DNA of 64,000 nucleotides from the NCBI GenBank assembly GCA_963762255.1, contig CAVXKA010000001.1, forward strand, positions 256,001 to 320,000, written 5' to 3'. A program made the translations under genes and the position numbers. The notes below the pieces were generated by a model. That model was not told where the DNA came from. It was given only the letters and a program-made list of their open reading frames with translations, and searched no databases. Every line of letters starts with the position of its first letter. Position 1 is the stretch's first letter. This document shows positions 1 to 20,608 of this stretch, piece after piece. The stretch is from Candidatus Eiseniibacteriota bacterium. GTDB lineage: Bacteria; Eisenbacteria; RBG-16-71-46; JABDJR01.

Positions 1-1573
1 TGACCGCGTAGATGCCGTCCCCCGCCGTCTGGTCGGGCGAGACACCGTTATCGGCCATGAAGATCCCCGGGGTGGCGAAGCTCGGAAGCGGCGCCTGGTC
101 GCCGGTCACCCCTACCGTGTCGAGCGGTCCGGGCCCGAACAGGTTCGCGTTGACGCGGAAGAAAACGTCGATGGGGTGCTGGATCACGGCGTCGGGGTTG
201 TCGTCGTTCCAGAAGGCGCGCAGCGTGTCACTGCTTCCGGTGTCGCTGGTGACCAGGAACTGACGGTTGGAGCGCGGCTCGAAACCCTGCACGTGGTGGA
301 GGAATTTCCACTCGAGCGTGGCCTCCGCCTTGCCGGTCAGCGTGCTCTTCGAAACGCTCATCGGCACCGTCGTCACGTAGACCGAGTCCACGTCCGGGTC
401 CAGCATCAGCGCGTTGTCCTTGGTCGGATTGAACGTCAAGGGGACCAGGCTCCCCTCGATGAAGAAGGAGTCGGGCGGGCTCGAGTGGGTGATCATGAAG
501 ACGCTCATGTCCCCTTCGAACCGCAGGCGCTTCAGGATGAACGACTTCTTGTTCCCCACGCCGTCGTTGACGATCGGGTTCCCGGCCTGATCCTGAACGT
601 TGGTCACGGTCACGTCGTAGAAGCTCGCCGAGGGCGATGCGTTGGAGCCCAGGGTCAAGTGGACGATGGCGGCGTTGGAGCCGTCCACTACCGCACCGGT
701 CACGGTGTAGGTGGCGGGACCGGCGTGAACCGCGTAGTTCGTCGGGGTGGTGGCGCCGGTGCCCACCGGCTCATTGAACTCCACGTCGATCTTGTTGGTG
801 GACGTGGCGATCTGCTTCTGCGCGTCGACGGTGAACCCGGTCGCCTTGGCGCTCTGCAGCAGGGGCGGGGTGGTGTCGGAGGTTCCCTGCACCACAAAGG
901 TCATCATGCAGCTCATCTCCACCGGGACGGTCACGTCCCAGGTCGTGCTGCTCGGGGTGGAAAGCTGGACGGCGTCGCTGCACATGGCGTCCAGCGGGCC
1001 CTTGGTGGTGCCGTCCTGGGTGACCCAGAACTCGACGTGGAGGGTGTCACCCGCACCCACGCCCAGCGTGCTGAGAGAGATCTTCCCCTCGGTGAAGGTG
1101 CCGTCGGCCATCCCCAACCCGTTCGGCCCATCGCTCACCACGGTCCAGGCCGCGCCGCCCCATTGGTAGAGCACCTCGTAGTTGTACGAGTTGCAGGAGG
1201 TGGGGACGACGTCGTAGAGATAGAAGTCCGGCTTCTTGGGCACGGTGTTCCACGCGATCTTGCGCGAGAACGCATCGGTGGGGCCGCCGGCCACCGTGTT
1301 CTTATCGATGGCCAGTCCCAGGTTGATATCGCACCACGTGCCGTGGTCGTAGTCGAAGCCGAAGTAGAGGAAGTTGGTGTCGTTGGTCAGGTAGATGTTG
1401 CCCTGATCCAACTGGGTGAACTGGGTGTCACCCCCGTCCGCGTCCAGCAAGTTGGCGACGTTGAAGTCGTTGGTGCCGTCCACGACGATCGTTTGCGGAA
1501 CGAAAGCCCACGCCGGCGCCGCCAAGAGCAGAGCAGCGAAGAGCGGGAGCAAAGACGCGCGCAGAGTGCTCAT
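1..1573 (-). CDS. Secreted multidomain protein (signal peptide, DOMON/CBM9-like domain, Ig-like domain, CBM-like and choice-of-anchor-X-like segments); runs off the left edge
   Basis: Not in the ORF track because no stop lies inside the window. Manual translation from ATG 1573 (GGAGG RBS upstream): MSTLRASLLPLFAALLLAAPAWAFVPQTIVVDGTNDF...NIYLTNDTNFLYFGFD...; near the edge MADNGVSPDQTAGDGIYAV. Confidence 0.8.
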   Translation of the reverse strand, partial: MSTLRASLLPLFAALLLAAPAWAFVPQTIVVDGTNDFNVANLLDADGGDTQFTQLDQGNIYLTNDTNFLYFGFDYDHGTWCDINLGLAIDKNTVAGGPTDAFSRKIAWNTVPKKPDFYLYDVVPTSCNSYNYEVLYQWGGAAWTVVSDGPNGLGMADGTFTEGKISLSTLGVGAGDTLHVEFWVTQDGTTKGPLDAMCSDAVQLSTPSSTTWDVTVPVEMSCMMTFVVQGTSDTTPPLLQSAKATGFTVDAQKQIATSTNKIDVEFNEPVGTGATTPTNYAVHAGPATYTVTGAVVDGSNAAIVHLTLGSNASPSASFYDVTVTNVQDQAGNPIVNDGVGNKKSFILKRLRFEGDMSVFMITHSSPPDSFFIEGSLVPLTFNPTKDNALMLDPDVDSVYVTTVPMSVSKSTLTGKAEATLEWKFLHHVQGFEPRSNRQFLVTSDTGSSDTLRAFWNDDNPDAVIQHPIDVFFRVNANLFGPGPLDTVGVTGDQAPLPSFATPGIFMADNGVSPDQTAGDGIYAV

Positions 1574-1646
1574 TTCGAACCTCCCCCAACCGGGTCGGAC
1601 ATCCGTCCGACGGATGCGAAGCCTGCGGGTCGCTAGTGTGGCGTGG

Positions 1647-1660
1647 TTTGACCGGTCCAA
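1647..1660. promoter_or_regulatory. LacI-family operator copy 1 (TTTGACCGGTCCAA)
   Basis: Near-perfect 14-bp palindrome with central CG; matches copies at 14186 and 15347; lies downstream of a sigma70-like promoter. Confidence 0.75.
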
Positions 1661-1690
1661 CAGAGCGAGTTGGGCGACCGGTGAAGCGAC

Positions 1691-1720
1691 ATTTTACTTC
1701 ATTTGGGGGGTTCGCGTCAA
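1691..1720 (-). promoter_or_regulatory. sigma70-like promoter for the 1..1573 gene
   Basis: Minus strand TTGACG-18 nt-TAAAAT. Confidence 0.6.
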
Positions 1721-1837
1721 CGATGCAGCGCGCGCTGCCAGCGCCATAACATCATGTTAAATAATCATTTACAAGAACATGAGAGGTCGGTTCTCCCGTC
1801 CCCCGGACGAAGCCGGGGGCGAGCCTAGCGCCCTCGG

Positions 1838-2677
1838 CTAGCCCTTCACGCCGCCGAGCGTCAACCCGCTCACGAGGAAGCGATTGAGGACAAGGAACAG
1901 CACCACCACCGGGATCGAGACCAGCACGCTACCCGCCGCGTAGTTGGCCCATTCGGTCTGAAACGTCCCGGCCAGGGCCTCCAGCCCCAAGGGAAGGGTG
2001 AAGAGGTTCTGGTTGGACAGAACGACGCGGGCCACGATGAACTCGGACCATGCCGCCATGAACGAGAAGAGCGCGGTGATGGTGAGTGCGGGCAAAGAGA
2101 GCGGGAGCACGATCCTCACGAACGCTCCCATCGGCGTCAGGCCGTCGATGAGCGCGGCCTCCTCAAGATCTCGGGGTATGGAATCGTAGTACCCCTTCAT
2201 CGTCCACACGCAGAACGGCAGTGCCGTGGTCACGTAGACGATCATGAGCCCCATGAGCGAGTTCAGGAGATTCAGCTTCTGCAGCAGCAGGTACATGGGA
2301 AGGAGGAGCATCGTGGCCGGGAACATCTGGGTGATCAGGAACGACGTGAGGCCGATCCGGTGCCCGGGGAAGCGGAATCGGCTGAACGCGTAGCCCGAGG
2401 TGGCCGCCAGCGCCACCCCGATCAGGGTCACCGAAAGCGATACGATGAGGCTGTTTTTGAGCCAGAGCAGGAAGGGCTTCTCGAAGAGGATGATCCGGTA
2501 CGCCTTGAAGCTCGCTCCTTCCGGGATCAGCCGCAGCGAGGTCGAATAGAGCTGGTCCCCGGGGCGCAGGGAAATCCCGATGATCTGGAGGATCGGGTAG
2601 AGGGTGAGAAGCGTCACCACGATGAGAGTCGCGTGGACCAGCGCCCGCTGCCACCGGGGGGCCTTGATCTCCCCCAT
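1838..2677 (-). CDS. malG: Maltose/maltodextrin ABC transporter permease
   Basis: EAA loop (LEEAALIDG), QMFP and WSEFIVA motifs, C-terminal GLTLGGVKG typical of MalG. Confidence 0.9.
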   Translation of the reverse strand: MGEIKAPRWQRALVHATLIVVTLLTLYPILQIIGISLRPGDQLYSTSLRLIPEGASFKAYRIILFEKPFLLWLKNSLIVSLSVTLIGVALAATSGYAFSRFRFPGHRIGLTSFLITQMFPATMLLLPMYLLLQKLNLLNSLMGLMIVYVTTALPFCVWTMKGYYDSIPRDLEEAALIDGLTPMGAFVRIVLPLSLPALTITALFSFMAAWSEFIVARVVLSNQNLFTLPLGLEALAGTFQTEWANYAAGSVLVSIPVVVLFLVLNRFLVSGLTLGGVKG

Positions 2678-3555
2678 CAGTACACCGACTCCGTGCCCCG
2701 GGAGAAGCGCATGGTGATGAACACGAAGGCCAGCAACAGGAGGAAGATCACGATGGAAAACGCGGCGGCGTACCCGTAGCGGTACAGGGTGAATGCCTCG
2801 TTGTAGACGTAGGTGACCAGAATGTGGCTCTTATTGGCGGGCTTTCCGCCGTTGGTCACCAGCCAGATCACGTTGAGGTTGTTGAAGGTCCAGATGGTGC
2901 CGAGAACGATGGCCGGCACCAGCACCGGCTTCAGGAGCGGCAGCGTCACGTGGCGCAGCTTCCGCCACCAGTTGGCGCCGTCGATGGCGGCCACCTCATA
3001 GAGCTCGTGGGGGATCGACTGGAGCCCCCCGAGCGCAATCACCATCATGAACGGAAAGCCGAGCCAGATATTGGCGATGATGGCGGCGCTGAAGGCGCCG
3101 GTGGCGTCGGAGAGCCAGGGCACTTGCGGCAAACCGAACTTGTGGAGCCACAAGTTCACCGCCCCGTACTCGTAGTTGAAGAGTCCCCGCCAGGTCAGCG
3201 CAGAAATGTACTGCGGGATGGCCCAGGGGAGAATCAAGAGCGCCCGGTACGCCCATTGGCCGCGGATGGGGCGATTGAGCAAGATGGCCAGGGCGACACC
3301 GAAGGTGACGTGGAAGAAGAGGTTCACCACCGTCCACACCACCGTCTTCAGGAACACCCAGTACATCGGCGCGCTCGTGAAGAGTTCCACGAAGTTCCGC
3401 AATCCGACGAACTCGGGGTTGCGGAACGTGTAGAGGTTCATGTTGGAGAAGGCGATGCGGAAGTTGTAGAGGAACGGGTAGGCCACGACCAGGACCATGA
3501 CCAGGATGGACGGCAGGACGAGGGCGTAAGCGAGAGGAATGCTGCGACGGTTCAT
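2677..3555 (-). CDS. malF: Maltodextrin ABC transporter permease (MalF/MalC type)
   Basis: LILPWAIP, WLGFPFMM, LQSIPHELYEVAAIDGA, FNNLNVIWL motifs; coupled to neighbours. Confidence 0.9.
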   Translation of the reverse strand: MNRRSIPLAYALVLPSILVMVLVVAYPFLYNFRIAFSNMNLYTFRNPEFVGLRNFVELFTSAPMYWVFLKTVVWTVVNLFFHVTFGVALAILLNRPIRGQWAYRALLILPWAIPQYISALTWRGLFNYEYGAVNLWLHKFGLPQVPWLSDATGAFSAAIIANIWLGFPFMMVIALGGLQSIPHELYEVAAIDGANWWRKLRHVTLPLLKPVLVPAIVLGTIWTFNNLNVIWLVTNGGKPANKSHILVTYVYNEAFTLYRYGYAAAFSIVIFLLLLAFVFITMRFSRGTESVY

Positions 3556-4838
3556 CGCTTCATGGACTCGATCTTCTCCACCGCGTCCGCCTGCATGTCG
3601 TGCGCCGCCGCCTCGGGAGTCTTGCTCCCGTTCATCACCGCCTGCATGTTCGGGCGCATGGCGTCCCAGATCACCCGCATCTCAGGCACCACCGGCATGC
3701 GACGCCCTACCTTCCACTGCTCCAGCGATGCCAGCAGCGTTGCGTCGCCGCGAATCTCCGGCCGGTCGTAGGCGGCTTGGATGCTGGGGAGAATGCCCAG
3801 CTCGACCCCGAACCGCGCGGAAATGTCGGCCGAGGTGAGGTAGTCCAGCAGTTCTTTCACCACCGCCTCCTTGGCGGCGGGGAGGTTCACGTTCACCGAG
3901 TATCCCTTGCTCCCGATCATGGGCGCGGCCCAGGGTCCACCGGGCTCCGCGCGCGGGATGCGGGCGAGCTTGAACGGCACCCCGGCCTGCTGGTAATCGC
4001 GGAAGGACCAGGGACCGTTCACGATCATGGCCACCTTGCTCCCCTTGAACAGAGTGTCCATGAGTTGGTAGTCGCACTCCCTGGGCATGACCTCGTATTT
4101 GTCGCGCAACTCCCGGAGGAACGTCAGAGCCTTCACGGTGGCCGGACTGTCGAGGGTGGGCCGCCGCTCGGCGTCCATAACCCAGCCCCCGTAAGCCGTG
4201 ATGAAGGGAACGAGCCAGAAGGGCTCGTTGAACTCGAAGGCCAGCCCGTACACATCGACGCGTCCCGACGACTTCTTCATGGCCGCCTGGGCCGCCCGGA
4301 TCAGGTCCGCGAAGGTCTCGGGCGGGGTGCCGACCAGTTCCGTGTTGTAGAGCAGGTTCAAGTGGTTGCCGACCTGGTCGGGAAGCGCCCACACGTGTCC
4401 ATCAAGGGTATCGAGCGCGGCGGGCAGGAACCGCGCCCATGTCGCGGGGGGCAGGAACTCATCGAGCGGGCGGATGATCTGGAGAATGGAGAACGGACCT
4501 ACCTGGTCCGACGGACCGTACACGAGATCCGGTCCCCCACCGGCCAGCGCGGCGGTCTGGTACTGGCTGCGCAGGTTCTCGGTGTCGTAGTGCACGAGCG
4601 AGACCGTCAGCCCCGGGTGGCTCGCCTGGTACTCGGCGAGGATCGCCTCCATCACCGCCTTCTCCTGCGGGTCGCGCTGCTCCCAGATGACGATCTCCAC
4701 CGGGCCGGCGGGCTTGTCTCCCCCGCTCTTCTTGCCGCCGCATCCGCTAAGAAGCAGACCCGGGATCGCGGCCAGAAGCACCAGGGCCGCCGCGAACCCG
4801 TGACCGAGCCGTGACCTGTGCCGGAGTCGCATGGGCAT
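3552..4838 (-). CDS. malE: Maltodextrin-binding lipoprotein (extracellular solute-binding protein family 1)
   Basis: Lipobox LLSGC; GPDLVYGPSDQVG, AMIVNGPW, MPVVPEMRVIW motifs of the MalE/MalX family; start placed at ATG 4838 (or 4832). Confidence 0.85.
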   Translation of the reverse strand: MPMRLRHRSRLGHGFAAALVLLAAIPGLLLSGCGGKKSGGDKPAGPVEIVIWEQRDPQEKAVMEAILAEYQASHPGLTVSLVHYDTENLRSQYQTAALAGGGPDLVYGPSDQVGPFSILQIIRPLDEFLPPATWARFLPAALDTLDGHVWALPDQVGNHLNLLYNTELVGTPPETFADLIRAAQAAMKKSSGRVDVYGLAFEFNEPFWLVPFITAYGGWVMDAERRPTLDSPATVKALTFLRELRDKYEVMPRECDYQLMDTLFKGSKVAMIVNGPWSFRDYQQAGVPFKLARIPRAEPGGPWAAPMIGSKGYSVNVNLPAAKEAVVKELLDYLTSADISARFGVELGILPSIQAAYDRPEIRGDATLLASLEQWKVGRRMPVVPEMRVIWDAMRPNMQAVMNGSKTPEAAAHDMQADAVEKIESMKR

Positions 4839-4845
4839 TCCCTTC

Positions 4846-5322
4846 TTAAGGAACAACGAGCAACGAGTTCTTGCCGCCGTACCCATCGTCGGCGGACTCC
4901 GGGTTCGCGGGGTCCGTCTTCCACTCGGAGCCGTTCACCACGAACTTGTATTGGTAGCTCCCGGGATCCAGAGGCTTCACGACAAACCACACTCCACCAT
5001 CCCCCTTCGTCAAGGGATCAGCCGAGGTGTTCCAACTGTTGAAGGTCCCGGCGAGGCTCACGTTGGCGGCGCTGGGGGCACTGAGCGTGAACCGCCACCC
5101 CGCGTCGGTCTTGGTGGGAGCCTGGGCGGCGCCACCTGCTTGGGCCTGGCCCGCCGGAGCCTGTACCGCCGGGGCGGCCGGAGCCGCGCCTCCGCTCGGT
5201 TGAGCGAGGCCGGGGTACGGGCGCGTGCGATCGCAACCCGAGGCCACGAGCAGAAGGGCCAGAGCTGCCGCGATGCCCGGAAGAACGCGGCCGCTCACCG
5301 ACAAGATCGTGCGTGACTTCAT
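4846..5322 (-). CDS. CBM48/AMPK-type glycogen-binding lipoprotein
   Basis: Lipobox VASGC, Ala/Pro/Gln linker, VSLAGTFNSW...GVW...GSYQYKFVVNG.EWKTDPAN...DDGYGGKNS; ATG 5322 with GGAGG. Confidence 0.85.
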   Translation of the reverse strand: MKSRTILSVSGRVLPGIAAALALLLVASGCDRTRPYPGLAQPSGGAAPAAPAVQAPAGQAQAGGAAQAPTKTDAGWRFTLSAPSAANVSLAGTFNSWNTSADPLTKGDGGVWFVVKPLDPGSYQYKFVVNGSEWKTDPANPESADDGYGGKNSLLVVP

Positions 5323-5383
5323 GGATGTCCTCCATCGAGGCGGGGCGAGCGGCTTCATGCCGCCCACCCGCGCCGGCGAGGGA

Positions 5384-7633
5384 TCATTGCTGAGCTACGG
5401 TGAACTGCTGGCGCCGCTCGTCGAGGGTGAAGACATACGTCCCCGTCCCCGGGAACTGCACCTTGAGCGCGGTCCCTTGCCCGCTCACCGGCCGCACCGG
5501 GAACGTCCCGGGGAGCGTGAGCAGCGTGTTCTCGTCACCGCCGTAATCTGGCGGGGTGTCGAACGCGCCGTCGGTCAGGAACTTGAAGAACTTCGGCGCC
5601 CCGATCATATCCGCCGTGATCGCGAGCGTGACCGTCCACACGCAAGGCGGGGACTCGACCATCTGCGGGGCCTCGGCGGGATCCCACGAGGTGAACTCGC
5701 CGACGATCTGGATCGTGTTGAAGGCCGAAGTCCCGGCCGCCAGGGTGATGCTGCCCAGGTCCACATTGGCGCCCGCCACCGCCACACCGGAGCGGGTCTC
5801 TTTGACGAAGCAGGGAGAGGAGATCTCCACCTTGTACGTGCCGTTGGGCAGCGTCTGGAATCGGAACGTCCGCGCGGACGCGTCGCTCTTGACCGTGGCC
5901 AGCGGCGTTGTGGCCGTGCCCTGGTACAGGTCCACCGTCGCCTGCGGGTAGGGGCCGGTGGAAAGACCCGCGAACGCTACCGTCCCGGTGATCCCGCCGG
6001 TGGGCACGGTTCCCAAAAGGGTCGCGGAGAACTCGAGCCCGGACTCGTCGAGCCGGAACACGTAGTCCCCACCGGTCAGCACCGAGATCTTGAGCGCCGT
6101 CCCCTGACCGGAAACTGGCATCACGGCATAAGTCCCCGGCAGAGGCAGTGTCTCGCTCTCCGATCCGCCGTAGTCCAGCGGGCTGTCGAAGGCGCCGCCG
6201 GTGACGAACTTGAAGTTGTAGGTACCGGGTTGAATGGTGAGGGTGTCGACCCAGACGCAGTTCGGGAGTTTGGTCATGGACGGGAATTGCAGGCTCCACG
6301 CGTTGAAATCGCCCAGAACCTGGATCTTCGTGAACGCGCTCTCGCAGCCAGGCACCAGGGTGATCGTCCCGATATCGAAGACCTCGCCCCTCACGTACGC
6401 GACCGCGTTATGGCGCCCCTCGAGGTACCCCGGTGCGGTGACGACGACGTCGTAGTTCCCGCTGTTGAGCCCCTTGAAGGCGAACGCGCTGTCGGTCTCC
6501 GCGCTTGCCAGAACCGTCGTCGTTCCCGCGGTCCGGACCTTCACGGTGGCGGTGGGCCGTGTCGAAGGATGATCGGCGAACTGCACCACGCCGCTCAAAC
6601 TGCCGGTCAACTCGGCCAGGGTAATTGCGCCGAGATCCGTGTCCTGGCCGTTGGTGAAGGCCACGCCGGTTCGGCGCTCCTGCGCGAAATCGGTCGCGGT
6701 GATCACGACGTCGTAGCTGCCGGTCGCCAACCCAACGAATGCAAACGCGCTGTCGGTCTGCGCGCTCTGCACCTCCGTCGAGGATCCCGCGTTGAAGACC
6801 GTGACCGTGGCTTGCGGCCGCGGGCGCGGATTCCCCTGGAAGAGCACCACACCCTTGAGCGCTCCACCGGGCACTTCGAGCGTGACGTCACCCAGGCGAG
6901 ATTCCCGATTATGCCGGACGACGATACCACCGAGGCGCTGCGTCAGGTACCCGGGGCTCGTCACCGTGACCTCGTAGAGCCCGACCCCGACATCGATGAA
7001 GCTGAACTCGCCGGTCTGAGGATCGGTGGAGGCGATCAACGAACCCGCCTCCGCCCCCGGAGGGGTGATGGAGAACTCGCCCGTCCCCTCGTTCAGCACG
7101 ATCTGGTATTCCCCGGCGGTCTTCACCGAGATCTTGAGTGCGGTTCCCTGCCCCGAGACAGGGAGGGCGGGATAGGTTCCGGGCACGACCAGCACATCGT
7201 TTTCGCTTCCGCCGTAGTCGGGCGGACTGTCGAACGCCCCTTCGGTGACGAATTTGAACAAGTACGTGCCGGCCTGGATGGTCAGGGTGTCGATCCAGAC
7301 GCACTCCTGATCCTTGGTCATGAGCGGAGCCAGGGTCAGATCCCACGAGGTGAACTCGCCGGCGATCTGGATCTTGGTGAACTGGCTCTGACACACCCCC
7401 GCCGAGGGGGCGGCCACCACCACGCGGGCGCTGGGATAGGGCGGCGTACCGAGTCCCTGGAACACGACGCGTCCCACGATGTCCCCGCTGCCGCCGGGGC
7501 CCTCGATGCGCGTGACATCGGGGTTGTCCCCGCAGCCACCGAGCCATCCCAGGACGGCCGTCACGAGGAGCGCCGCGGCGATTCGAGTCGCCCGTCGCCG
7601 GGTCCTATGCAAAGGATCGGATGCCATCCACAT
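5384..7633 (-). CDS. Large lipoprotein with carboxypeptidase-regulatory-like (Cna-B-like) domains and three SusE/F-like starch-binding repeats
   Basis: Lipobox LGGC; three repeats IQI.G.F..W...M....CVW..TL.I...FKF.T.GAFD.P.DYGG.E...LKI; true start ATG 7633 (ORF track over-extends). Confidence 0.8.
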   Translation of the reverse strand: MWMASDPLHRTRRRATRIAAALLVTAVLGWLGGCGDNPDVTRIEGPGGSGDIVGRVVFQGLGTPPYPSARVVVAAPSAGVCQSQFTKIQIAGEFTSWDLTLAPLMTKDQECVWIDTLTIQAGTYLFKFVTEGAFDSPPDYGGSENDVLVVPGTYPALPVSGQGTALKISVKTAGEYQIVLNEGTGEFSITPPGAEAGSLIASTDPQTGEFSFIDVGVGLYEVTVTSPGYLTQRLGGIVVRHNRESRLGDVTLEVPGGALKGVVLFQGNPRPRPQATVTVFNAGSSTEVQSAQTDSAFAFVGLATGSYDVVITATDFAQERRTGVAFTNGQDTDLGAITLAELTGSLSGVVQFADHPSTRPTATVKVRTAGTTTVLASAETDSAFAFKGLNSGNYDVVVTAPGYLEGRHNAVAYVRGEVFDIGTITLVPGCESAFTKIQVLGDFNAWSLQFPSMTKLPNCVWVDTLTIQPGTYNFKFVTGGAFDSPLDYGGSESETLPLPGTYAVMPVSGQGTALKISVLTGGDYVFRLDESGLEFSATLLGTVPTGGITGTVAFAGLSTGPYPQATVDLYQGTATTPLATVKSDASARTFRFQTLPNGTYKVEISSPCFVKETRSGVAVAGANVDLGSITLAAGTSAFNTIQIVGEFTSWDPAEAPQMVESPPCVWTVTLAITADMIGAPKFFKFLTDGAFDTPPDYGGDENTLLTLPGTFPVRPVSGQGTALKVQFPGTGTYVFTLDERRQQFTVAQQ

Positions 7634-7671
7634 GCCCTGTCCCTCTTCCCGGTCCGCGCGGGACCGGTGGG

Positions 7672-8073
7672 TCAATCGACAATCAAGAGCGAGTTGAAAC
7701 CGCCGTATCCGTCGTCCTTGCGCTGGGGATTGTTGGGATCTTCCTTCCAGTTGTTCTCGTCGACGACGAACTTGTACTCGTAGCGTCCCGGCGGGAGGTG
7801 TTCGCGCCGTTCCCAGATGCCATCCCCATCCGGATCTTCCATCTTGCCCACCTGGTAGGTGCCGGTCTGCGCCTGGCCGCCGAGCCAGTTGTTCTCGGGC
7901 CAGTTGCCGGCGAGCTGAACCACACGGGCCGCCGGCGCCTGAAAGCGGAACAGTACGGTCCCGTCCGATTGACGGGTGGGAGGCGGCAGCCGCTTCTTGA
8001 TGAAGTTGAGGCCGCAGCCGGTCTGTCCCGCCGCCAGGGCGATCAGGATCAGACCGAGAACGAGCTTGCGCAT
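7672..8073 (-). CDS. Small CBM48 glycogen-binding lipoprotein
   Basis: Lipobox-like QTGC; VQLAGNW, GDGIW, GRYEYKFVVD..NWKEDPNN, DDGYGGFNS. Confidence 0.85.
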   Translation of the reverse strand: MRKLVLGLILIALAAGQTGCGLNFIKKRLPPPTRQSDGTVLFRFQAPAARVVQLAGNWPENNWLGGQAQTGTYQVGKMEDPDGDGIWERREHLPPGRYEYKFVVDENNWKEDPNNPQRKDDGYGGFNSLLIVD

Positions 8074-8090
8074 GAAAGATCACCTCTCCA

Positions 8091-10271
8091 TCAGAACTTG
8101 ATAATCGCCTCGAGCTGGAAGCGCTTCTCGTCTTCCAACTCCTGCTCCGCGCTGCGGACGGTGCCCGCCATGTTCAGGTACTGGGTCTTCGCCGCGTTGC
8201 CGTCGGCTCCCCGCTCGAAAATGAACATATCCCGGCCGATGTGCTTGTACTCGTTGGCCACCCCGTCGATCACCCACGGGTCCACTCCCCAGGACAGGCC
8301 CATCTCCATGGCCGGCGTGAACCGGTACTTGAGCTCCACGAAATGCGAGGTGAAGGTGTCCTTGAGCCGGAGCACCGGATCGTCGTAACGGACAATACGC
8401 GTGTCGGTGTTGAGACCGAGCCGCCGGGTGAGATCGAGGTGGAACGCGATCTGGTTGTCCCAGTACTTGGGCTTACGGCTCAAGCCGGTCGAATTCAGGA
8501 TTGCCCAGTACTCCACCGAGACATTGCGCGGGCGGTAGAAGGTCCACTTGGCGTGCGGCTTCCACGAGACCACGTCCTCGCCGCCCAGCATCACCAGACG
8601 GTCCACCGTGACCACGTGCTCGCCCTGCTCCAGCCAGAAGTTGTTGCTGTCGAACCAGAACTGATCGGTCCACGTCGCGCGGCGGTCGTAGCGGAAATCG
8701 TAGTAGTCCACCTTGAGCTCGGCTTCCCAGGGCCAGAGCTTCCATTCCGCTCCGTCGAACTTCACCCCGGTCCGGTACGTGGTCACCGCGTTGTAGCGGG
8801 TCTCGGGCGCGTACGTGCGATTGACGAGATCCGCGTCCTGGAACTCCATGGCGCCGGTCAGGTGCCAGCCTCGATAGGCGAAGTAGTGCACTCCGGCCGT
8901 GAACCGGCGGCTGGTGTTGAGCCGGAGGGTGCGGCTGTTCTCTCCACGCAGGGTCTGGGTGGTATCCGCGCCGGTGCCGTTGACGGAATCGATCCCGGAG
9001 TAGGTGATCTGGCGGTACTCGCCCTTGCCCGTTCCGATCCAGCTCTCGCCGCCGAGGACCTCGCCGAACAACTCGACGCCGGAGGGATCGTTCCGATAGC
9101 GGAGATCCAACCCGCCGCCGTGCCAGCTCTCCACCGTGCGCGGGAAGTAGCGGACGAAAAGACGGCGGGAATCTGCGGAGAGCGCTTGGTCGTCCACGAT
9201 CTGGACCAGCGCCCCCGGGTTCCGCCCGCGATCCACTCGGTAGGAGACTCCGGCGGTCAGACTCTCTCCGAGCGGGCGCGTCCACCGTGTGGCCAGCACG
9301 TTCTTGTTGTTGTCGGACGTGTTGACGTTGTACCGGCTGGTCCCGAACGCGGTGCCGCTCGGGGCGCCGATCACATCGCTCTTCAGGGTCTGGAGCGGAA
9401 CGTCCTGCGGGCTGTCGACGCCGCCGGTCCGGAAATCATCCGAGTACAGAAGGCGCCCCTCGAACTTGCCGAACTGCCGCCATGCCATCACTCCCTGCTG
9501 GTTGTAGCCCCAGGAGTGGTGGTACAGGCCGACGTCGCCGACCAGGTGCAGCGGATCGTCCCACACGCCCACCGAATCGTTGTCGAAGGCGACGAGGTTG
9601 ATGTCCTCGTTCTGCAGGAGGAGGCTCCCCCGGTCGAAGCGGAGGTTCGACTCCCAGAGTTGCACGTTCTGGTTCTGGTTGTTGATGTTGGTGAGAACGT
9701 GGGCGGTCAGATCTTCGTTCACGCGGATATTGAAGTCGAGGTCGATGTCGAAGTTGGGCCGGTCCAGATTCCACTCGGGGTTGCTCCCGGGGATCTTGCG
9801 GTCCTGCATGAGCACGATGTAGCGGGATCCCAGGAACACCTTGGGGGAGAGCTCGGTGTTGGAGGTGGCTTTCAGGACCACCACTTTTCCGTCCCCGCCG
9901 ATCTTCACCAGCGAGTTGCCGAAGTCGCCGCCGGTGACCGGATTCTCCGGATCCGCCACCCATTGTCCGTCGACCACGAACTTGTACTGGTGCTCGCCGG
10001 CGGTGAGCGGAACAACGACGGACCACACCCCGTCTCCACTCCGGGTCAAGGGCGCGACGGTGGCATTCCAATCGTTGAAATCGCCGGCCAGGCTTACCTG
10101 GCCCGCGTAGGAATCGGTGTAGGAGAACCGGACGCCTCCCGCCGCCGATTCGACTCCCGCCCCGGCCGGGGCCGCCCAAGGCAGCGCCAGCACCAGGACG
10201 AGCAGCGCCCATCCGATCCGCCACAGGCCCCTCGGCGGGGCCGTCCGAAACGAGGTCGGGATCGATCGCAT
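8091..10271 (-). CDS. N-terminal CBM48 domain fused to a putative outer-membrane beta-barrel
   Basis: Signal peptide, VSLAGDFNDW...HQYKFVVDGQWVADPEN, then amphipathic aromatic-rich strands ending FQLEAIIKF (BAM beta-signal-like). Confidence 0.75.
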   Translation of the reverse strand: MRSIPTSFRTAPPRGLWRIGWALLVLVLALPWAAPAGAGVESAAGGVRFSYTDSYAGQVSLAGDFNDWNATVAPLTRSGDGVWSVVVPLTAGEHQYKFVVDGQWVADPENPVTGGDFGNSLVKIGGDGKVVVLKATSNTELSPKVFLGSRYIVLMQDRKIPGSNPEWNLDRPNFDIDLDFNIRVNEDLTAHVLTNINNQNQNVQLWESNLRFDRGSLLLQNEDINLVAFDNDSVGVWDDPLHLVGDVGLYHHSWGYNQQGVMAWRQFGKFEGRLLYSDDFRTGGVDSPQDVPLQTLKSDVIGAPSGTAFGTSRYNVNTSDNNKNVLATRWTRPLGESLTAGVSYRVDRGRNPGALVQIVDDQALSADSRRLFVRYFPRTVESWHGGGLDLRYRNDPSGVELFGEVLGGESWIGTGKGEYRQITYSGIDSVNGTGADTTQTLRGENSRTLRLNTSRRFTAGVHYFAYRGWHLTGAMEFQDADLVNRTYAPETRYNAVTTYRTGVKFDGAEWKLWPWEAELKVDYYDFRYDRRATWTDQFWFDSNNFWLEQGEHVVTVDRLVMLGGEDVVSWKPHAKWTFYRPRNVSVEYWAILNSTGLSRKPKYWDNQIAFHLDLTRRLGLNTDTRIVRYDDPVLRLKDTFTSHFVELKYRFTPAMEMGLSWGVDPWVIDGVANEYKHIGRDMFIFERGADGNAAKTQYLNMAGTVRSAEQELEDEKRFQLEAIIKF

Positions 10272-11857
10272 CAGAAGGTCCCCTTCAAAGTGAGACGGAC
10301 CAGATCCTTGTTGTCGGCGCTTCCCTCGAGGTTTCCCTCGTAGACGGGGTTGCTTCCGCCGCCGATCCAGAACGGACCGTAGGCCAGGAACAGCTCCAGG
10401 TTGGGGCGGGGCCGGTACTGAAGCTCGCTGAAGAGCCCCTTCCTCACCCGGGCGGGGTCGTTGCCGAACGTGAAACGGTTGTACATCTTGACCGTGCTGC
10501 TGATGTTCACCGAGGTTTCGAACGAACCGAGTTCCTTCTGGAAGACGGTGCTGAGATCCCGGATCCGGAACTGCAAGCGCATCCAGGCCAACTTGTTCTC
10601 GACCTGCATCTCGGCGAAGACGTCGTCGTTGTCGGTGACCTGCTTGATCGTGGTGTTTCCGTCGTTCTGCCAGTCACGGGTGGTGCGCTTGCGGTAGAAC
10701 AGCTTGCTGGTGAACCCGTTCACGAACTCGACGTAGGCTTCGGAGTAGAACTCGGTGACATGCCGGCTCTGGTTCACGCGCTTGGTATAGGAGAGGTAGT
10801 TGTTCGAAAGCGTGATGGCCCGCCCCGGAACCAGGTACCAGGTGTTGACGTAGTAGCCGTTCTCGTCGCTGTTGCCGTCGCCGAGCTGGTTGCGGAACTG
10901 GGGCCCGTAGTACCAGCAACTGGGGGCGACGTTGAGATACCCGACCCGATAGTCCCCCACCCGTAGAGACCGGATCTCCGCTTTCACCACCGCGTCGTCG
11001 GGAAGCCCGTCCTCGGGGTGGCGGAGGCTGAACTTCGAGACGTCCATCGCGTCGCTGCGGTAGGGGGTGCCGACCGTGCGCTGCTGGCCTTCCGCATACT
11101 CGAGCGAGAAATCGATGTTGCTCCACGTGTAGCGCAGGTCGCCGGCCCAGACTTCGGTGACCGAAGCCTGATCCACCCCCGATCGCTTCACCGTGTTCTT
11201 GTGGTTCCAGGTGACGCCGCTACGGAGCTTGCCGCCGAAGAACTCGCGCCGGAGTCGGCCGATGTAGGCGTCGTCGGTGGCGGTCGGCTTGTCGGGAAGA
11301 GAACCGTTGGAGGGATTGCTCTGGGAAGAAAAGTCGCTCGCGATCAGGTTGATGTAGGTGGAGCCCTTGACCCCCAACATGGAATCGCGCGACCAGAGGT
11401 TAAGCCGCACGCCTTGCGCGTTGCCGCCGTCGTTGGAGGATCCCCCCTGGACGACCTGGATGAGGTGGTTGTCCACCCAGAAACGATCCTGGCGGCTGAA
11501 CAGGTAGGTCTCGATCCCCTTTCCGTTCACGTCCCGGTTGTAGCGCACGTGGGCTTCTCGGTACTGGAAGAGCGGTCTGCGGTTGCTGTTGCTCCCGGTG
11601 TTCCACTCCGCCTCGAACTTGGTGAATGCCTCCAGACCCGGGATCGGCTGGCTGAACAGCCGGAACTGCGTGTTGTTGAAGGTGTCGTTGCTGTTGCTGT
11701 CGAAGTCCCACTCGTAGCGGCGGTCCTGCTTTCGGACGTCGAGCTGGAAGACGTACTCGCCCTCAAGGCGGGTGAACGCCAGGACGGGGAGGGCCCCGGC
11801 CAGCAGGGCGGAGACGGCGAGCGCGGCAACGAGGAGGCGGGGCGAGCGCGGGGTCAT
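10271..11857 (-). CDS. Putative outer-membrane beta-barrel, paralog of the 8091..10271 barrel
   Basis: Start ATG 11857 overlaps the upstream stop; signal peptide, alternating hydrophobic strands, C-terminal VRLTLKGTF. Confidence 0.7.
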   Translation of the reverse strand: MTPRSPRLLVAALAVSALLAGALPVLAFTRLEGEYVFQLDVRKQDRRYEWDFDSNSNDTFNNTQFRLFSQPIPGLEAFTKFEAEWNTGSNSNRRPLFQYREAHVRYNRDVNGKGIETYLFSRQDRFWVDNHLIQVVQGGSSNDGGNAQGVRLNLWSRDSMLGVKGSTYINLIASDFSSQSNPSNGSLPDKPTATDDAYIGRLRREFFGGKLRSGVTWNHKNTVKRSGVDQASVTEVWAGDLRYTWSNIDFSLEYAEGQQRTVGTPYRSDAMDVSKFSLRHPEDGLPDDAVVKAEIRSLRVGDYRVGYLNVAPSCWYYGPQFRNQLGDGNSDENGYYVNTWYLVPGRAITLSNNYLSYTKRVNQSRHVTEFYSEAYVEFVNGFTSKLFYRKRTTRDWQNDGNTTIKQVTDNDDVFAEMQVENKLAWMRLQFRIRDLSTVFQKELGSFETSVNISSTVKMYNRFTFGNDPARVRKGLFSELQYRPRPNLELFLAYGPFWIGGGSNPVYEGNLEGSADNKDLVRLTLKGTF

Positions 11858-12732
11858 CGGCGGGCCCCCCTCTCGGGAAGACTCAGACGGAGCGATGCCC
11901 GGTAGGTGTTGCCCAGCATCGCGTGAGTGAGGAACGCAGTGTCGACTTCCCAACGCGTTCCCTTGACGCCGATGCCGCCGGCGAATTCCTCGTCGTAGAT
12001 CCCGGCGCGGACGGCGAAAACATCGTAGAACCAGATCTCCCCCGCATAGTTCCACGTGGGATGATCGCCGAGGTCGGACCGGCTGCACATGATCGTCGAT
12101 TCCGGACGCCAGCGATAGGACGCCGACAGCTCCACCCCGCCGGGAACCTTGTCTCCCCCGCTGTCCCCGATGAAGTTGAACTCCGGCTCGCCGAGATTTC
12201 GCAGCACGGCGCCGAATCGCCAGTTCGTCCGTTCTTGCCACAGGAGTCCGAGATCCCCGGTGAACTTGGTCTTGGATCCGAAATCGCGGTCGGGCCCACC
12301 CGCGTGACTGTCGAAGGATACGGCGGCGAGCTTACCGGTGGCGCCGAGGTGAACGGCCCGGTTGTTGTCGCGATATACCCAGCGCCCGTAGGAGAGACCG
12401 ATCAGATCCTCGGACACCACCCCATCCAGAGCCAGTCGGTGCCAGGATAGAGCCGTTCCCCCTCCGGCGAAGGGGAGCCCGGCGACCACGGACCCCGAGG
12501 TGAGATCCTCGACCATATAAGGACGCGAGTAGGTGAATAGACCCTGGGGCTGAGCGAGGACCGACAGCGCTGCGGGATTCCAGTGAGCGGCGGAAACGTC
12601 CTCGACGGCAGCGCCGAAGCTCCCGGCCAAGGCAAGTCCCCGCGCATCCACGTCAACACGTTCGAAGTAGGCACCGGCCGGAGCCGCGAGAAGAAGCACG
12701 GCTAGAAGCGCAAGCGGCAGCGCGCGCGTCAT
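11854..12732 (-). CDS. PorV/PorP-like (T9SS shuttle-type, FadL-like) beta-barrel
   Basis: DARGLALAGSFGAAVEDVSAAHWNPAAL N-terminal motif typical of the PorV/PorQ family; C-terminal LGNTYRASL; start ATG 12732. Confidence 0.75.
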   Translation of the reverse strand: MTRALPLALLAVLLLAAPAGAYFERVDVDARGLALAGSFGAAVEDVSAAHWNPAALSVLAQPQGLFTYSRPYMVEDLTSGSVVAGLPFAGGGTALSWHRLALDGVVSEDLIGLSYGRWVYRDNNRAVHLGATGKLAAVSFDSHAGGPDRDFGSKTKFTGDLGLLWQERTNWRFGAVLRNLGEPEFNFIGDSGGDKVPGGVELSASYRWRPESTIMCSRSDLGDHPTWNYAGEIWFYDVFAVRAGIYDEEFAGGIGVKGTRWEVDTAFLTHAMLGNTYRASLRLSLPERGARR

Positions 12733-12772
12733 CTCATCGCCCTCCCGCCGTTGGAACGATCCGGCGCCCGCA

Positions 12773-14131
12773 TCACCGGACCACCGCGATGCCGCGCCGG
12801 GCCTGGTCCTGGTCGGGCTCCAGGACGATCTGAAGGACGTAGATGCCGGCCTTGAGCAGCATCCCGTCGTCGTCGCGTCCGTCGAAGACGTTGGCCACAT
12901 GGGGTTCCGGAGCCTCCAGCTCGGCGGGCGTGAAGGCGTAGCTGTCATAGATCGTCCGCACGCGCTCGCCGTTCATATCGAAAACCCGCGCGGTGAACTT
13001 GATGCGCCGGGTGCGCCGCAGGTTCTCGTCGGTGATCCGCGGCGTCACGGTGAACCGGAATCCAAGGACATCGCCGAGCTCGGGAGCGATCGCCTTGGGC
13101 ACCGCCGTGAACTGATCGATCTGCAGGGCTTGCCCACGCACCGGCGGCGGCACGAAGAAGTAGCTCTCGACGTAGGCGGCATACTCCTCGGGAGTCTGCT
13201 GCGCGGAGGGCACCCGAACCGGAACGCCGAAATCGGCCACATGGTCCGGCGTGGCTCCCCCCGCAGCATTCACACGGTCGAGGGGGATGCGCACGAAGTT
13301 GTCCAGCACCACCGGGACCGCCGAGTCGACTTGCGTACCGCTGATGTTGTCGGGAGCGGTGTCGGGCCCGCCCCCGCCGTCGCCGCCGGTCGTGACCCAC
13401 GCGGCGAGCCGGATCTCCGTGACATCCGTGGGCATGACATAGACCGAGTCGCCGTAGTCGGCGCTGTACTCCCATGTCCCCTTGCCGAGGAAGATCGTAT
13501 CCCAGGGGATCGCCGCCTCCATGGCCCGGTTGGGAAGATCGCCGTTGAAGTTGGCGACGGTGAGGAAGCTCTCGGTAGCGACCTGGCTGTCCCGATTGGG
13601 CCCGGTGTAAGTCCAGAGCTGGGGAACGGTGTTGCGGTCCCAGGTGGCAAGGAAGACCTCGGGATTGAATCCGTTGTCGAACGAGACCGAGCGCCGCCAC
13701 CCTCCTTCGATCGACGAGAACGAGGTCCACCCCGGGTTCTGGCGGTCGGGCAGGGTGTCGAAGAAGATCATGATGTTGTTGTTGAAGCTGTACCCCTCGA
13801 CCGCCACATAGAGAAAGCGTGCGTCCCACGTGATGCGAATGTTGTTGATGTCGTTGAAGCGGCCCCACTGGGAGTCGATCGCGCTCTCCTCGGGCGCCCC
13901 ATTCGGCGTGCGCTGAAAGATCGTCTCGTCGTCCAAATAATCCGCGGTCGACCCGTCGATGACGATTCGATCGGTGAGGTCGATCGCGGTGCCGGCGCGA
14001 GCGATCGGAGCGGACAAGAAGAGAGCGAGAATGACCACCGCCGGAAGTGCCCGGCAGGCGGGCAAACCGCCGCGCAGCGCACTCTGCGAGGCCGTTCGCA
14101 GCCAAGAGCGGAGGGACGAATGGAGGTTCAC
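12773..14131 (-). CDS. Secreted DOMON-like protein with FlgD-Ig/T9SS-like C-terminal sorting domain
   Basis: Signal peptide; IVIDG...DINNIRITWDARFLYVAVEG; C-terminal VFDMNGERVRTI...FDGRDDDGMLLKAGIYVLQI. Confidence 0.75.
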   Translation of the reverse strand: MNLHSSLRSWLRTASQSALRGGLPACRALPAVVILALFLSAPIARAGTAIDLTDRIVIDGSTADYLDDETIFQRTPNGAPEESAIDSQWGRFNDINNIRITWDARFLYVAVEGYSFNNNIMIFFDTLPDRQNPGWTSFSSIEGGWRRSVSFDNGFNPEVFLATWDRNTVPQLWTYTGPNRDSQVATESFLTVANFNGDLPNRAMEAAIPWDTIFLGKGTWEYSADYGDSVYVMPTDVTEIRLAAWVTTGGDGGGGPDTAPDNISGTQVDSAVPVVLDNFVRIPLDRVNAAGGATPDHVADFGVPVRVPSAQQTPEEYAAYVESYFFVPPPVRGQALQIDQFTAVPKAIAPELGDVLGFRFTVTPRITDENLRRTRRIKFTARVFDMNGERVRTIYDSYAFTPAELEAPEPHVANVFDGRDDDGMLLKAGIYVLQIVLEPDQDQARRGIAVVR

Positions 14132-14185
14132 GCGTTCAAGCCTTCCGAGTGAGGGCGAGCCTGATGCGGAGAGGATAGGGTCCCG

Positions 14186-14199
14186 TTGGACCGCTCCAA
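14186..14199. promoter_or_regulatory. LacI-family operator copy 2 (TTGGACCGCTCCAA)
   Basis: Palindrome abutting the -10 box of the operon promoter. Confidence 0.8.
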
Positions 14200-14228
14200 A
14201 AACTAGTGGAGAGGTCGCCGGGTGTCAA
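14200..14228 (-). promoter_or_regulatory. sigma70 promoter of the glucan-uptake operon
   Basis: Minus strand TTGACA-17 nt-TAGTTT. Confidence 0.75.
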
Positions 14229-14268
14229 GCCATCGGGGACATCGGAGGAGGATCCGTGCGCCGACCGG

Positions 14269-15309
14269 TCAGGGTTGGGACACGGGCGGTGGGCCGCTTG
14301 ACTCGCGCGCCACCAACCGGGTGGGAACGACCCGCTCCACCGGTTCCGGATCCCGGAGTTCGAGGATCTCGAGCAGGAGCTGGGTGGCCATGCGGCCGAT
14401 GTCGTAGATGGGCTGCGAGAGGGTCGTCAGACGGGGGCGCACGTAGGTGGTCAGCCGGATGTCGTCCGCTCCAACGACCGTCAAGTCCTCTGGGACGTGC
14501 AGTCCGAACTCCTCCTGCGCCACGCGGAGCGCTCCCAGGGCCATCATGTCGTTGGCCGCCATCAGCGCCGTCGGGCGAGGGCGACGTACGAGAAGCGCCC
14601 GCGCCGCCTCGGCCCCACTCGATTCTGAAAAATTTCCCCAAAGACGAAGGTCGTCCTCCATGGCGATTCCCGCTTCGGCGAGGCCGTCCAGAAATCCGAG
14701 GCTGCGGTCCTGCCCCACCGTCGTGTTCTCGAGCCCGCCGATGAACGCGATGCGGCGGTGCCCGAGCGAGACGAGGTGACCGACCATCTCGCGGGCCCCG
14801 GACCGGTTGTCCGCGTAGACCGCGCTCGCTCCCGGCATGCGGGTGTTGACCAGCACCAGCGGCGTCCGCAATTCGATCAACTCGCGGACGTAGGCATCCT
14901 CCTTGATCGTGCCGAGCAGCAGCATGCCGTCGGCGGCGCCCTGCCGAAGCAGGCGGCGATGGGTCGCGTGTTCGAGGAAGCGCGCGTTGGCCATTTCGAT
15001 CACGAGTCGATACCCGGCCTCGGAGAGCACGTCGGAAATGCCGCTGATGGCCTCGGCGAAATAGACGTCGGCGAGCACGTGCGATCCGGTGGCGGGCAGG
15101 ATGACCGCCGCGGCGTTGGCGCGCCGGCGCGCGAGGCCGCGGGCCATGGTGTTGGGCTGGTAGCCCGCTGTCTCGATCACTTCGAGCACGCGGTCCCGGG
15201 TCACGGCGGTGATGCGCGGGTCGCCGTTGATGACGAGCGACACCGTCGAGCGCGAGACGCCGGCCAGGCGCGCGATGTCCCGAATGGTGGGCTTCGCAGT
15301 TTCGTGCAC
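14269..15309 (-). CDS. LacI-family transcriptional regulator
   Basis: PTIRDIARLAGVSRSTVSLVING HTH, YQPNTMARGL hinge, VPEDLTVVGADD, LTTLSQP; GTG 15309 with GAGAGG RBS. Confidence 0.92.
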   Translation of the reverse strand: MHETAKPTIRDIARLAGVSRSTVSLVINGDPRITAVTRDRVLEVIETAGYQPNTMARGLARRRANAAAVILPATGSHVLADVYFAEAISGISDVLSEAGYRLVIEMANARFLEHATHRRLLRQGAADGMLLLGTIKEDAYVRELIELRTPLVLVNTRMPGASAVYADNRSGAREMVGHLVSLGHRRIAFIGGLENTTVGQDRSLGFLDGLAEAGIAMEDDLRLWGNFSESSGAEAARALLVRRPRPTALMAANDMMALGALRVAQEEFGLHVPEDLTVVGADDIRLTTYVRPRLTTLSQPIYDIGRMATQLLLEILELRDPEPVERVVPTRLVARESSGPPPVSQP

Positions 15310-15346
15310 GAGAATCCTCTCCGAAAAACCGCGGGGATTCGTTGCG

Positions 15347-15365
15347 TTGGATCGGTCCAATTATA
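15347..15365 (-). promoter_or_regulatory. LacI operator copy 3 (TTGGATCGGTCCAA, 15347-15360) overlapping a perfect TATAAT -10 (15360-15365); probable autoregulation
   Basis: Palindrome directly upstream of the LacI gene. Confidence 0.75.
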
Positions 15366-20518: not shown

Positions 20519-20580
20519 CTCCTTTACCTCCTTGCTCATCCCTGCAGCGCTTCCAGTCTGAGTGCCGCACAGCGAGAGAG

Positions 20581-20608
20581 CCGTGGGGCCGGAAATCCGG
20601 CCCCACGG
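20581..20608. terminator. Strong intergenic hairpin between the giant gene and the PorV-OmpA gene (no U-tract; stabiliser or partial terminator)
   Basis: CCGTGGGGCCGG-AAAT-CCGGCCCCACGG perfect 12-bp stem. Confidence 0.55.

Follow-up and report, generated by a model that had tools for sequence, protein, structure and literature searches.

Diderm bacteria are known to carry large glycans through the outer membrane mainly in two ways, by SusC/SusD pairs powered by TonB and by small, specific porins of which LamB is an example. A gene cluster with neither is carried by a Candidatus Eiseniibacteriota bacterium (GenBank assembly GCA_963762255.1) at the left end of a 64,000-nucleotide stretch of contig CAVXKA010000001.1 (positions 256,001 to 320,000 of the forward strand), hereafter the window. 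In region 1-15365, read on the minus strand, a gene for a LacI-family repressor is followed by eleven genes, all on that strand. Their products include a small PorV-like barrel, two large barrels termed A and B, lipoproteins with carbohydrate-binding modules of family 48 (CBM48) and a MalEFG-like importer. The locus very probably serves utilization of an alpha-glucan (starch, glycogen or maltodextrin), a role well supported by genes for glycoside hydrolases of families GH13 and GH57 and a MalK/UgpC-type ATPase in the same cluster of relatives. The new part is a conserved outer-membrane module in an otherwise familiar glycan-utilization locus.

The SusCDEFG/SusR system of Bacteroidota likewise is a regulated locus that combines lipid-anchored or surface binding proteins of tandem modules, a barrel step at the outer membrane and alpha-glucan hydrolases, and the hosts share both the Fibrobacterota-Chlorobiota-Bacteroidota (FCB) superphylum and type IX-style sorting tails. 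Unlike Sus, however, the Eisenbacteria locus lacks a SusC-type transporter and SusD, has a binding-protein-dependent ATP-binding cassette (ABC) importer at the inner membrane and a LacI-type regulator, and carries binding modules of the CBM48 type rather than SusE/F. With the LamB-MalE-MalFGK2 system it shares a MalEFG-type importer, evident from the genes, and, as proposed here, TonB-independent passive passage and periplasmic capture. It differs in having no LamB porin; its barrels, of 528 and 726 amino acids (aa), have about two dozen predicted strands, compared with the 18 of LamB. Moreover, its MalE is lipid-anchored, its importer proteins score below equivalog cut-offs, MalK lies outside the operon, and a LacI-type repressor takes the place of MalT.

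The cym system of Klebsiella oxytoca comprises the cyclodextrin channel CymA, the binding protein CymE and an ABC importer. CymA is also a dedicated TonB-independent barrel that serves bulky sugars derived from alpha-glucan, and its gene accompanies those of a binding-protein importer, but it is a small monomeric barrel of 14 strands without a carbohydrate-binding module. The Foldseek and PDB profile results for barrels A and B include no sequence match or specific fold match to CymA. In type IX secretion, cargo proteins are associated with PorV/PorQ, to which the small barrel of the locus, encoded beside a secreted protein with a putative FlgD-Ig-like tail, is distantly related. However, the window contains no type IX core genes, no part of that system is known to resemble A or B, and the window protein and 23 of 24 orthologues fall below the family cut-off. 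Finally, AlgE, Wzi and DUF6029 proteins are large barrels, each a monomer, and are believed to conduct polysaccharide as a linear chain (PMC9603273), but their role is export, their loci are biosynthetic, and barrel A has no Pfam match. By analogy, the logic of the locus appears closest to that of LamB-MalEFGK and CymA, in both of which capture follows passive passage, with Sus-like multi-module lipoproteins and FCB-type surface display. It is neither a Sus nor a LamB system, since the defining outer-membrane components of both were tested for and are absent. No title or abstract on this locus or these barrel families was found in the literature, and the available parts of PMC9603273 and PMC11495043 hold no description of it.

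The gene cluster and its two large barrels

The genes of the region are listed below in their order of transcription, with positions in the whole window.

14269-15309, minus strand: lacI, LacI-family repressor (Pfam LacI 63.9 bits, Peripla_BP_3 124.9 bits)
12773-14131, minus strand: first secreted protein, 452 aa, signal peptide
11854-12732, minus strand: PorV/PorQ-like small outer-membrane barrel, 292 aa (PorV_fam 63.5 bits, TraF_2 34-35 bits)
10271-11857, minus strand: barrel A, 528 aa, signal peptide, C-terminal Phe, unnamed family
8091-10271, minus strand: barrel B, 726 aa, CBM48 fused to a large beta-barrel, C-terminal Phe
7672-8073, minus strand: small CBM48 lipoprotein, 133 aa (AMPK1_CBM 29.0 bits)
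5384-7633, minus strand: triple-CBM lipoprotein, 749 aa (CarboxypepD_reg and CBM48/X25-like repeats)
4846-5322, minus strand: CBM48 lipoprotein, 158 aa (CBM_48 48.4 bits, AMPK1_CBM 43.1 bits)
3552-4838, minus strand: MalE-like solute-binding lipoprotein of a carbohydrate uptake transporter 1 (CUT1) sugar ABC importer (SBP_bac_8 105.5 bits)
2677-3555, minus strand: MalF-like permease, short form (BPD_transp_1)
1838-2677, minus strand: MalG-like permease (BPD_transp_1)
2-1573, minus strand: second secreted protein, first 524 residues in the window; the gene crosses the left window edge

A preliminary description of this DNA, made from its letters, had proposed this gene order within a partly translationally coupled operon, and coordinates, translations, Pfam and NCBIfam bear it out. 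By coordinates, start and stop codons overlap at four junctions: by 4 nucleotides (nt) between the PorV-like gene and A and between MalE and MalF, and by 1 nt between A and B and between MalF and MalG. A 264-bp gap separates the MalG-like gene from that of the second secreted protein, and a conserved gene sought between the two in the common locus type proved to be common to close relatives only. The same description had reported neither a TonB-dependent receptor nor LamB. Pfam and NCBIfam scans agree: Plug, TonB_dep_Rec and SusD have no match among the 12 region proteins and 40 other window open reading frames (ORFs) of at least 250 aa, nor does LamB among the operon proteins and the same 40 ORFs, which represent housekeeping and pilus genes.

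A gene-neighborhood search among relatives, suggested in the preliminary description, finds the cluster conserved. A barrel A profile retrieved 63 loci from contigs of one genome per species; these were viewed with flanks of up to 10 kb, and gene presence was determined by tblastn with the window proteins. Nearly all are from metagenome-assembled genomes of Candidatus Eisenbacteria/Eiseniibacteriota, with a few labeled Gemmatimonadota, Krumholzibacteriia or Effluviviaceae, and the closest show 74-88% protein identity to the window. The PorV-like, A and B genes are adjacent on one strand in 60 of the 63; a contig end cuts the other three loci within barrel A. Barrel B is present in every locus retrieved with barrel A (63/63), and a five-gene core of secreted protein, PorV-like barrel, A, B and small CBM48 lipoprotein in 46. 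The second secreted protein occurs in 39 loci, usually divergent from the core; MalE, MalF and MalG occur in 31, 34 and 30, on either side of it; and lacI occurs in 8. In the most distant branch (loci L055-L063), barrel A is 26-31% identical to that of the window. Directly upstream of the core in locus L012 (3302-7600) are genes for a TonB-dependent receptor (CarboxypepD_reg, Plug and barrel) and a 440-aa protein that belongs to no family.

Both large barrels were modeled with AlphaFold2 from family alignments. The barrel A model (predicted local distance difference test score, pLDDT, 83.3; predicted template-modeling score, pTM, 0.75) has some 24 strand elements over residues 28-527, beginning straight after the signal peptide, with no separate N-terminal domain and no plug domain. 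That of barrel B (pLDDT 83.6, pTM 0.73) comprises a CBM48 sandwich at about 40-124, a low-confidence linker and a barrel at about 144-725, with a helical insert (679-714) just before the last strand; the CBM48 occupies the place where a plug would sit. Going by these models, each barrel would have about 22-26 strands. Both proteins end in Phe, as is usual for outer-membrane barrels. A complex prediction for barrel B (38-726) with the small CBM48 lipoprotein (20-133) weighs neither way (score 0.00, mark 0.32).

Neither barrel could be placed in a described family. Barrel A has no Pfam or NCBIfam match, and Plug, TonB_dep_Rec and LamB match neither barrel, even at E <= 10; the preliminary description had named a mapping to TonB-dependent or LamB families as one of the results that would speak against it. 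A profile search of PDB sequences yields nothing for barrel A and CBM48 alone for barrel B, with no porin. The Foldseek comparison proposed at the same time assigns no known family either: against the PDB, A and B match hundreds of barrels, TonB-dependent transporters, FimD/PapC ushers, porins and AlgE among them, at 6-12% identity and template-modeling (TM) scores of 0.20-0.49, as generic large barrels would. By every defining feature tested, the barrels are thus not TonB-dependent receptors, and profile comparison indicates that they are not LamB relatives. A paralogous relationship between A and B was considered and is not supported (hhalign probability 5%), and tblastn detects no paralogue of either elsewhere in the window.

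The wider families tell the same story. An exhaustive profile search with barrel A yields 178 clusters in all. None of the 120 homologues among the matches listed has any Pfam domain, and none of 52 distant full-length relatives taken from the 178 clusters has a Pfam barrel family. For barrel B, 118 of the 120 homologues among the matches listed carry CBM_48, as do 47 of the 50 relatives that a search limited to the barrel part retrieves; the three exceptions are probably partial, since they measure 508-593 aa and lie on contigs of 1.8-5.9 kb. As far as sequence comparison can tell, A and B are two small, phylum-restricted barrel families of which no characterized member is known, and fusion of CBM48 to the barrel is constant in the barrel B family.

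CBM48-type modules, importer and linked hydrolases

Above-cut-off matches to CBM48/AMPK1_CBM are found in four operon proteins, in the triple-CBM lipoprotein only when it is scored as a whole. At the N-terminus of barrel B, Pfam reports CBM_48 at 43.3 bits and AMPK1_CBM at 52.4 bits, and the PDB profile search matches the module to the glycogen-binding domain of AMPK beta (E 1e-16). Alignment with AMPK beta1/beta2 sets FNDW on FNNW and HQYKFVVDGQW on HQYKFFVDGQW. Residues W68, K97, W104 and N119 of the module are invariant in 30 family sequences; the aligned Trp, Lys, Trp and Asn are the residues that hold sugar in the AMPK beta domain.

In all, the operon encodes six CBM48-type modules: one in barrel B, one in each of two small lipoproteins and three in the large lipoprotein. 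The last, a 749-aa protein, matches CarboxypepD_reg in four stretches (81.3 bits), with immunoglobulin (Ig) domains between the CBM repeats. Its three CBM48/X25-like repeats are visible in the translation and as internal tblastn matches; AMPK1_CBM scores 35.6 for the whole protein, X25_BaPul_like 26.2 and CBM_48 21.7, and no single stretch passes. The 158-aa lipoprotein has the lipobox LLVASGC and a long Ala/Pro-rich tether. Relatives have arrays of up to seven CBM48-type modules in a row. None of the three CBM48-type lipoproteins matches a SusE/F family, and the early label 'SusEF-like' for the triple protein is an analogy.

The small CBM48 lipoprotein, present in 56 of the 63 loci, is the best conserved member of the cluster, at 46-88% identity, compared with 32-83% for barrel B. 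In an alignment of 27 sequences, mean column identity is 64%, and an invariant lipid cysteine is followed in 27/27 by an invariant K-x-R-L-x-P-P. Its residues K26, R28, L29, P31 and P32 are a candidate docking or sorting signal.

The importer proteins have MalE, MalF and MalG as their top NCBIfam matches, at 130.4 bits (cut-off 291), 182.9 bits (cut-off 392) and 193.9 bits (cut-off 261), respectively, which indicates the same class of transporter at scores short of the equivalog level; the MalE-like protein also matches a galacto-oligosaccharide binding protein (102.8 bits). Hydrolases and the ATPase appear in relatives, where Pfam was run on 80 flanking ORFs of 18 loci. Locus L037 has in its flank a 900-aa protein that combines N-terminal CBM48 modules and Alpha-amylase_N with a GH13 catalytic domain. 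Over about 530-560 residues, this catalytic part matches 27 of the 63 loci by tblastn, with identities of 46-86%; it is weak in L049 and matches nothing in the window. In the distant branch, the core and importer are likewise there, and a GH57 with CBM48 modules on both sides comes next; every locus of the branch long enough to extend to its position, three in all, contains it. At the cluster edge, a UgpC/MalK-type ATPase passes the subfamily cut-off in 9 of 10 scanned ORFs, the tenth being cut by the locus end; tblastn detects it at 52% identity or more in 15 loci and nowhere in the window. The GH13 of L037 and the GH57 of L058 each have a signal peptide and neither a lipobox nor a C-terminal sorting domain, and are for that reason probably periplasmic. 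Genes for putative esterases (PF00756) also occur near the cluster in L013 (1428-2606), L018 (1307-2731) and L029 (20695-21474).

The strongest argument that the core acts on alpha-glucan is that GH13 and GH57 are joined to it in separate lineages. The alpha-glucan role put forward in the preliminary description is thus supported by the six CBM48-type modules, the MalEFG-like importer and the linkage to GH13, GH57 and MalK-type genes.

Possible passage across the outer membrane

Barrels A and B may form an outer-membrane sugar conduit, a reading to which we give a probability of roughly one half. On this model, the adjacent PorV-like barrel would hold one of the two secreted proteins with type IX-style tails, both of which would be displayed at the cell surface. 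Chains of alpha-glucan, or long maltodextrins, would cross the outer membrane via barrel A, barrel B or both, and passage would be passive, since the barrels have no recognizable plug or TonB-type domain. The N-terminal CBM48 of barrel B, periplasmic by the usual barrel topology, could catch the chain and, with the tethered CBM48 lipoproteins, bias it inward. A periplasmic GH13 or GH57, in this genome encoded outside the window, would shorten the chain; the lipid-anchored MalE-like protein would pass the products to MalFG, energized by a MalK/UgpC-type ATPase from elsewhere. A sugar inducer would relieve LacI repression at the three operators.

A more ambitious version is tentative, and we consider it unlikely as it stands: A and B would together be a TonB-independent machine that threads long alpha-glucan chains inward, with a wide plugless conduit, a CBM48 binding ratchet in place of TonB energy, and hydrolases bearing only a signal peptide that cut after entry. 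If true, it would be a third outer-membrane solution to glycan uptake beside SusC/SusD and LamB-type porins, phylum-wide in Eisenbacteria. The preliminary description had already called the locus a third architecture. Of that claim, the conserved cluster with barrels outside the TonB-dependent and LamB families stands; the architecture itself is a reasonable hypothesis and not a result. Of the three findings that the description had named as counting against it, none emerged within what the analysis covered. Eisenbacteria are an uncultured phylum of soil, sediment and wastewater, and the locus keeps familiar periplasmic and inner-membrane parts. Were the barrels a conduit, the implications would be energy-independent import of long chains driven by binding modules, names and functions for two families of a few hundred sequence clusters, and better metagenome-based prediction of carbon use in Eisenbacteria.

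Several points weigh against a conduit. No experiment or structure ties either barrel to sugar passage, and the fold does not point to a porin, since the matches are generic and include TonB-dependent barrels and pilus ushers. As modeled, a plugless barrel with some 24 strands would leave an exceptionally wide opening unless occluded; the helical insert 679-714 of barrel B is a candidate for filling the lumen. The CBM48 lipoproteins could face the periplasm or the outside. No glycoside hydrolase or MalK-type ATPase is found in the operon or the 40 other window ORFs, as the preliminary description had noted for the part it read. In addition, L012 has a TonB-dependent receptor beside the cluster (one of the 18 loci with flanks scanned), and the language-model lead for barrel A is DUF6029, a family likened in PMC9603273 to the Wzi barrel of polysaccharide export.

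The main rival explanation, for which we see limited likelihood, retains an alpha-glucan locus but makes A and B an assembly or anchoring platform: either a dock for the secreted proteins together with the PorV-like barrel or a translocon that flips the CBM48 lipoproteins, with sugar entering by a porin or TonB-dependent receptor encoded elsewhere. The first two operon genes do form a pair of tail-bearing cargo and PorV-like barrel, a pairing that recurs 5 kb upstream, and barrel A finds some of its best fold matches in usher translocation domains (FimD, TM 0.45/0.49). The invariant motif after the lipid cysteine of the small CBM48 lipoprotein could be a docking or export signal, and L012 has its TonB-dependent receptor next to the cluster. 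However, such a receptor is seen in just that one of the 18 loci, no component known from type IX secretion or lipoprotein export is similar to A or B by family match, and a glycan-handling barrel explains the constant fusion of CBM48 to barrel B more easily. As an anchoring platform, the locus would still define the display of glycan-binding proteins in the phylum.

Two further alternatives are less likely than the platform. It is improbable that A and B serve to export or otherwise handle an alpha-glucan made by the cell, for instance a capsule or a glycogen-like polymer of the envelope, in the manner of AlgE, Wzi or PgaA, with the CBM48 proteins organizing the polymer. Atlas features put barrel A near DUF6029 clusters (0.96), and a part in polysaccharide secretion has been suggested for DUF6029 (PMC9603273). 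Additionally, the UniRef name of one barrel A homologue starts 'Alginate expo...', and AlgE is among the fold matches of barrel B (TMt 0.43). Assignment of barrel A to DUF6029 or the alginate-export barrels was nevertheless set aside as a language-model lead, since A has no Pfam match and none of the 52 distant relatives matches DUF6029 or Alginate_exp. Moreover, neither the operon nor the scanned flanks contain a glycosyltransferase, synthase, Wzx/Wzy or outer-membrane polysaccharide export (OPX) gene, and the linked genes are catabolic: a binding-protein-dependent importer, LacI, GH13 and GH57. It is likewise improbable that the CBM48-type modules bind, and the locus targets, some other glycan. 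Esterases in xylan systems also bear CBM48-like modules; three loci have PF00756 esterase genes close to the cluster, ferulic acid esterases are weak CBM48-profile matches (E 0.2), and the MalE-like protein has its galacto-oligosaccharide match. Against this, the solved structures nearest to the modules are those of glycogen-binding domains, and the residues aligned with their binding residues are invariant, the top importer matches are MalE, MalF and MalG, and two alpha-glucan-active hydrolase families are linked to the core in separate lineages.

Secreted proteins, regulation and neighboring genes

The 292-aa barrel is, by its profile scores, a distant PorV/PorQ relative that falls below the curated family cut-off (63.5 bits against 90 for PorV_fam, NF033709). 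Each of 24 orthologues has a match to PorV_fam, PorVQ2 or both at E <= 1e-8; one of them reaches 90 bits. The first secreted protein, encoded next to it, has no Pfam or NCBIfam match even at E <= 10. The C-terminal domain (CTD) originally attributed to it has sub-threshold evidence: FlgD_ig scores 16.6-20.8 bits (cut-off 27) in 5 of 17 orthologues. The family profile matches FlgD at E 0.006, and the window copy itself is without a tail match.

The second secreted protein has a signal peptide and a near-threshold Ig-like domain (Big_5, 22.6 bits, cut-off 23.6). Its window copy ends before the C-terminus; all 11 full-length orthologues score above the FlgD_ig cut-off, several with Por_Secre_tail, and in profile comparison the family matches FlgD (1e-7) and the C-terminus of PorU (1.7e-5). 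The two secreted proteins have a common N-terminal domain (hhalign 96.5% probability). This domain was first called DOMON, a label that the tools do not confirm beyond a language-model lead: neither Pfam at E <= 10 nor the PDB profile search matches it to anything. The Atlas lead is to Glucodextran_C (0.92) and is not backed by hhalign, which gives less than 3% against three Glucodextran_C proteins (from L055, L057 and L058). In the distant branch, the place of the small secreted protein is taken by one of about 1780 aa that combines Glucodextran_C and CarboxypepD_reg with an FlgD_ig/CHU_C tail (L055, 3671-9007; L058, 3691-9042), and L058 has a separate 258-aa Glucodextran_C protein (17527-18303) before the GH57.

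A second pair of tail-bearing cargo and PorV-like barrel lies 5 kb upstream of the cluster on the minus strand (window 18899-30992). It consists of a 3458-aa protein with Ig-like domains and an FlgD_ig tail (20616-30992) and, after it, a PorV-family barrel that includes a fused peptidoglycan-binding domain of OmpA type (18899-20539), which at 100.3 bits is above the PorV_fam cut-off. Similar pairs are found upstream of the cluster in L001, L002 and L004.

Control by LacI and a second operator-bearing unit, both proposed in the preliminary description, are supported by three palindromes, with 0-1 mismatch to the pattern, that are kept in relatives. The candidate regulatory sites are as follows.

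15347-15360, no strand assigned: operator-like palindrome 5ʹ of lacI (candidate site of autoregulation), matching the pattern with 1 mismatch
14186-14199, no strand assigned: operator-like palindrome TTGGAGCGGTCCAA before the operon, 0 mismatches
1647-1660, no strand assigned: operator-like palindrome TTGGACCGGTCAAA before the second secreted protein, 0 mismatches
14200-14228, minus strand: promoter-like TTGACA, 17 nt, TAGTTT, immediately upstream of the operon operator, read from the sequence
1691-1720, minus strand: promoter-like TTGACG, 18 nt, TAAAAT, for the second unit, found by the scanner with 10/12 matches

The TAGTTT hexamer of the operon site scores too weakly for the promoter scanner. 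The 14-bp pattern TTGGAsCGGTCmAA has 10 strand-matches at no more than 2 mismatches, compared with 1.28 expected. In the seven closest relatives (L001-L007), all of which have lacI, the palindrome stands 5ʹ of lacI in 7/7 and 5ʹ of the operon in 7/7; in L001, L002 and L007 it also precedes the orthologue of the second secreted protein. Where lacI is not adjacent, no cluster gene is preceded by a site with up to 2 mismatches, and the few strays lie away from gene starts. Comparative support for a LacI-controlled regulon, as judged from these predicted sites, is thus good. For lacI itself, the GTG at 15309 is the preferred start, the ORF being open to 15360. The top NCBIfam matches of its product are CytR, CcpA and RbsR, each below the equivalog cut-off.

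Directly upstream of lacI (15361-18155, minus strand) are genes for an ABC-2 permease and its ATPase, the permease ORF (737 aa) including a fused CAAX/Rce1-like protease domain. This pair, unrelated to the sugar importer, is also upstream of lacI in L001, L003, L005, L006 and L007. Upstream of the 3458-aa protein, three consecutive minus-strand ORFs of 657, 724 and 499 aa (30664-36176) have no Pfam or NCBIfam match. Lon protease is split on the minus strand into overlapping ORFs for the substrate-binding N-domain (41881-43065) and the AAA and proteolytic domains (40650-41906), which suggests a frameshift or sequencing error near 41.9 kb. A thiolase ORF (47630-48487) appears truncated at its N-terminus. 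Finally, a 295-aa protein encoded at 39511-40398 on the minus strand has a PEP-CTERM sorting domain (TIGR02595, 28.1 bits, cut-off 16).

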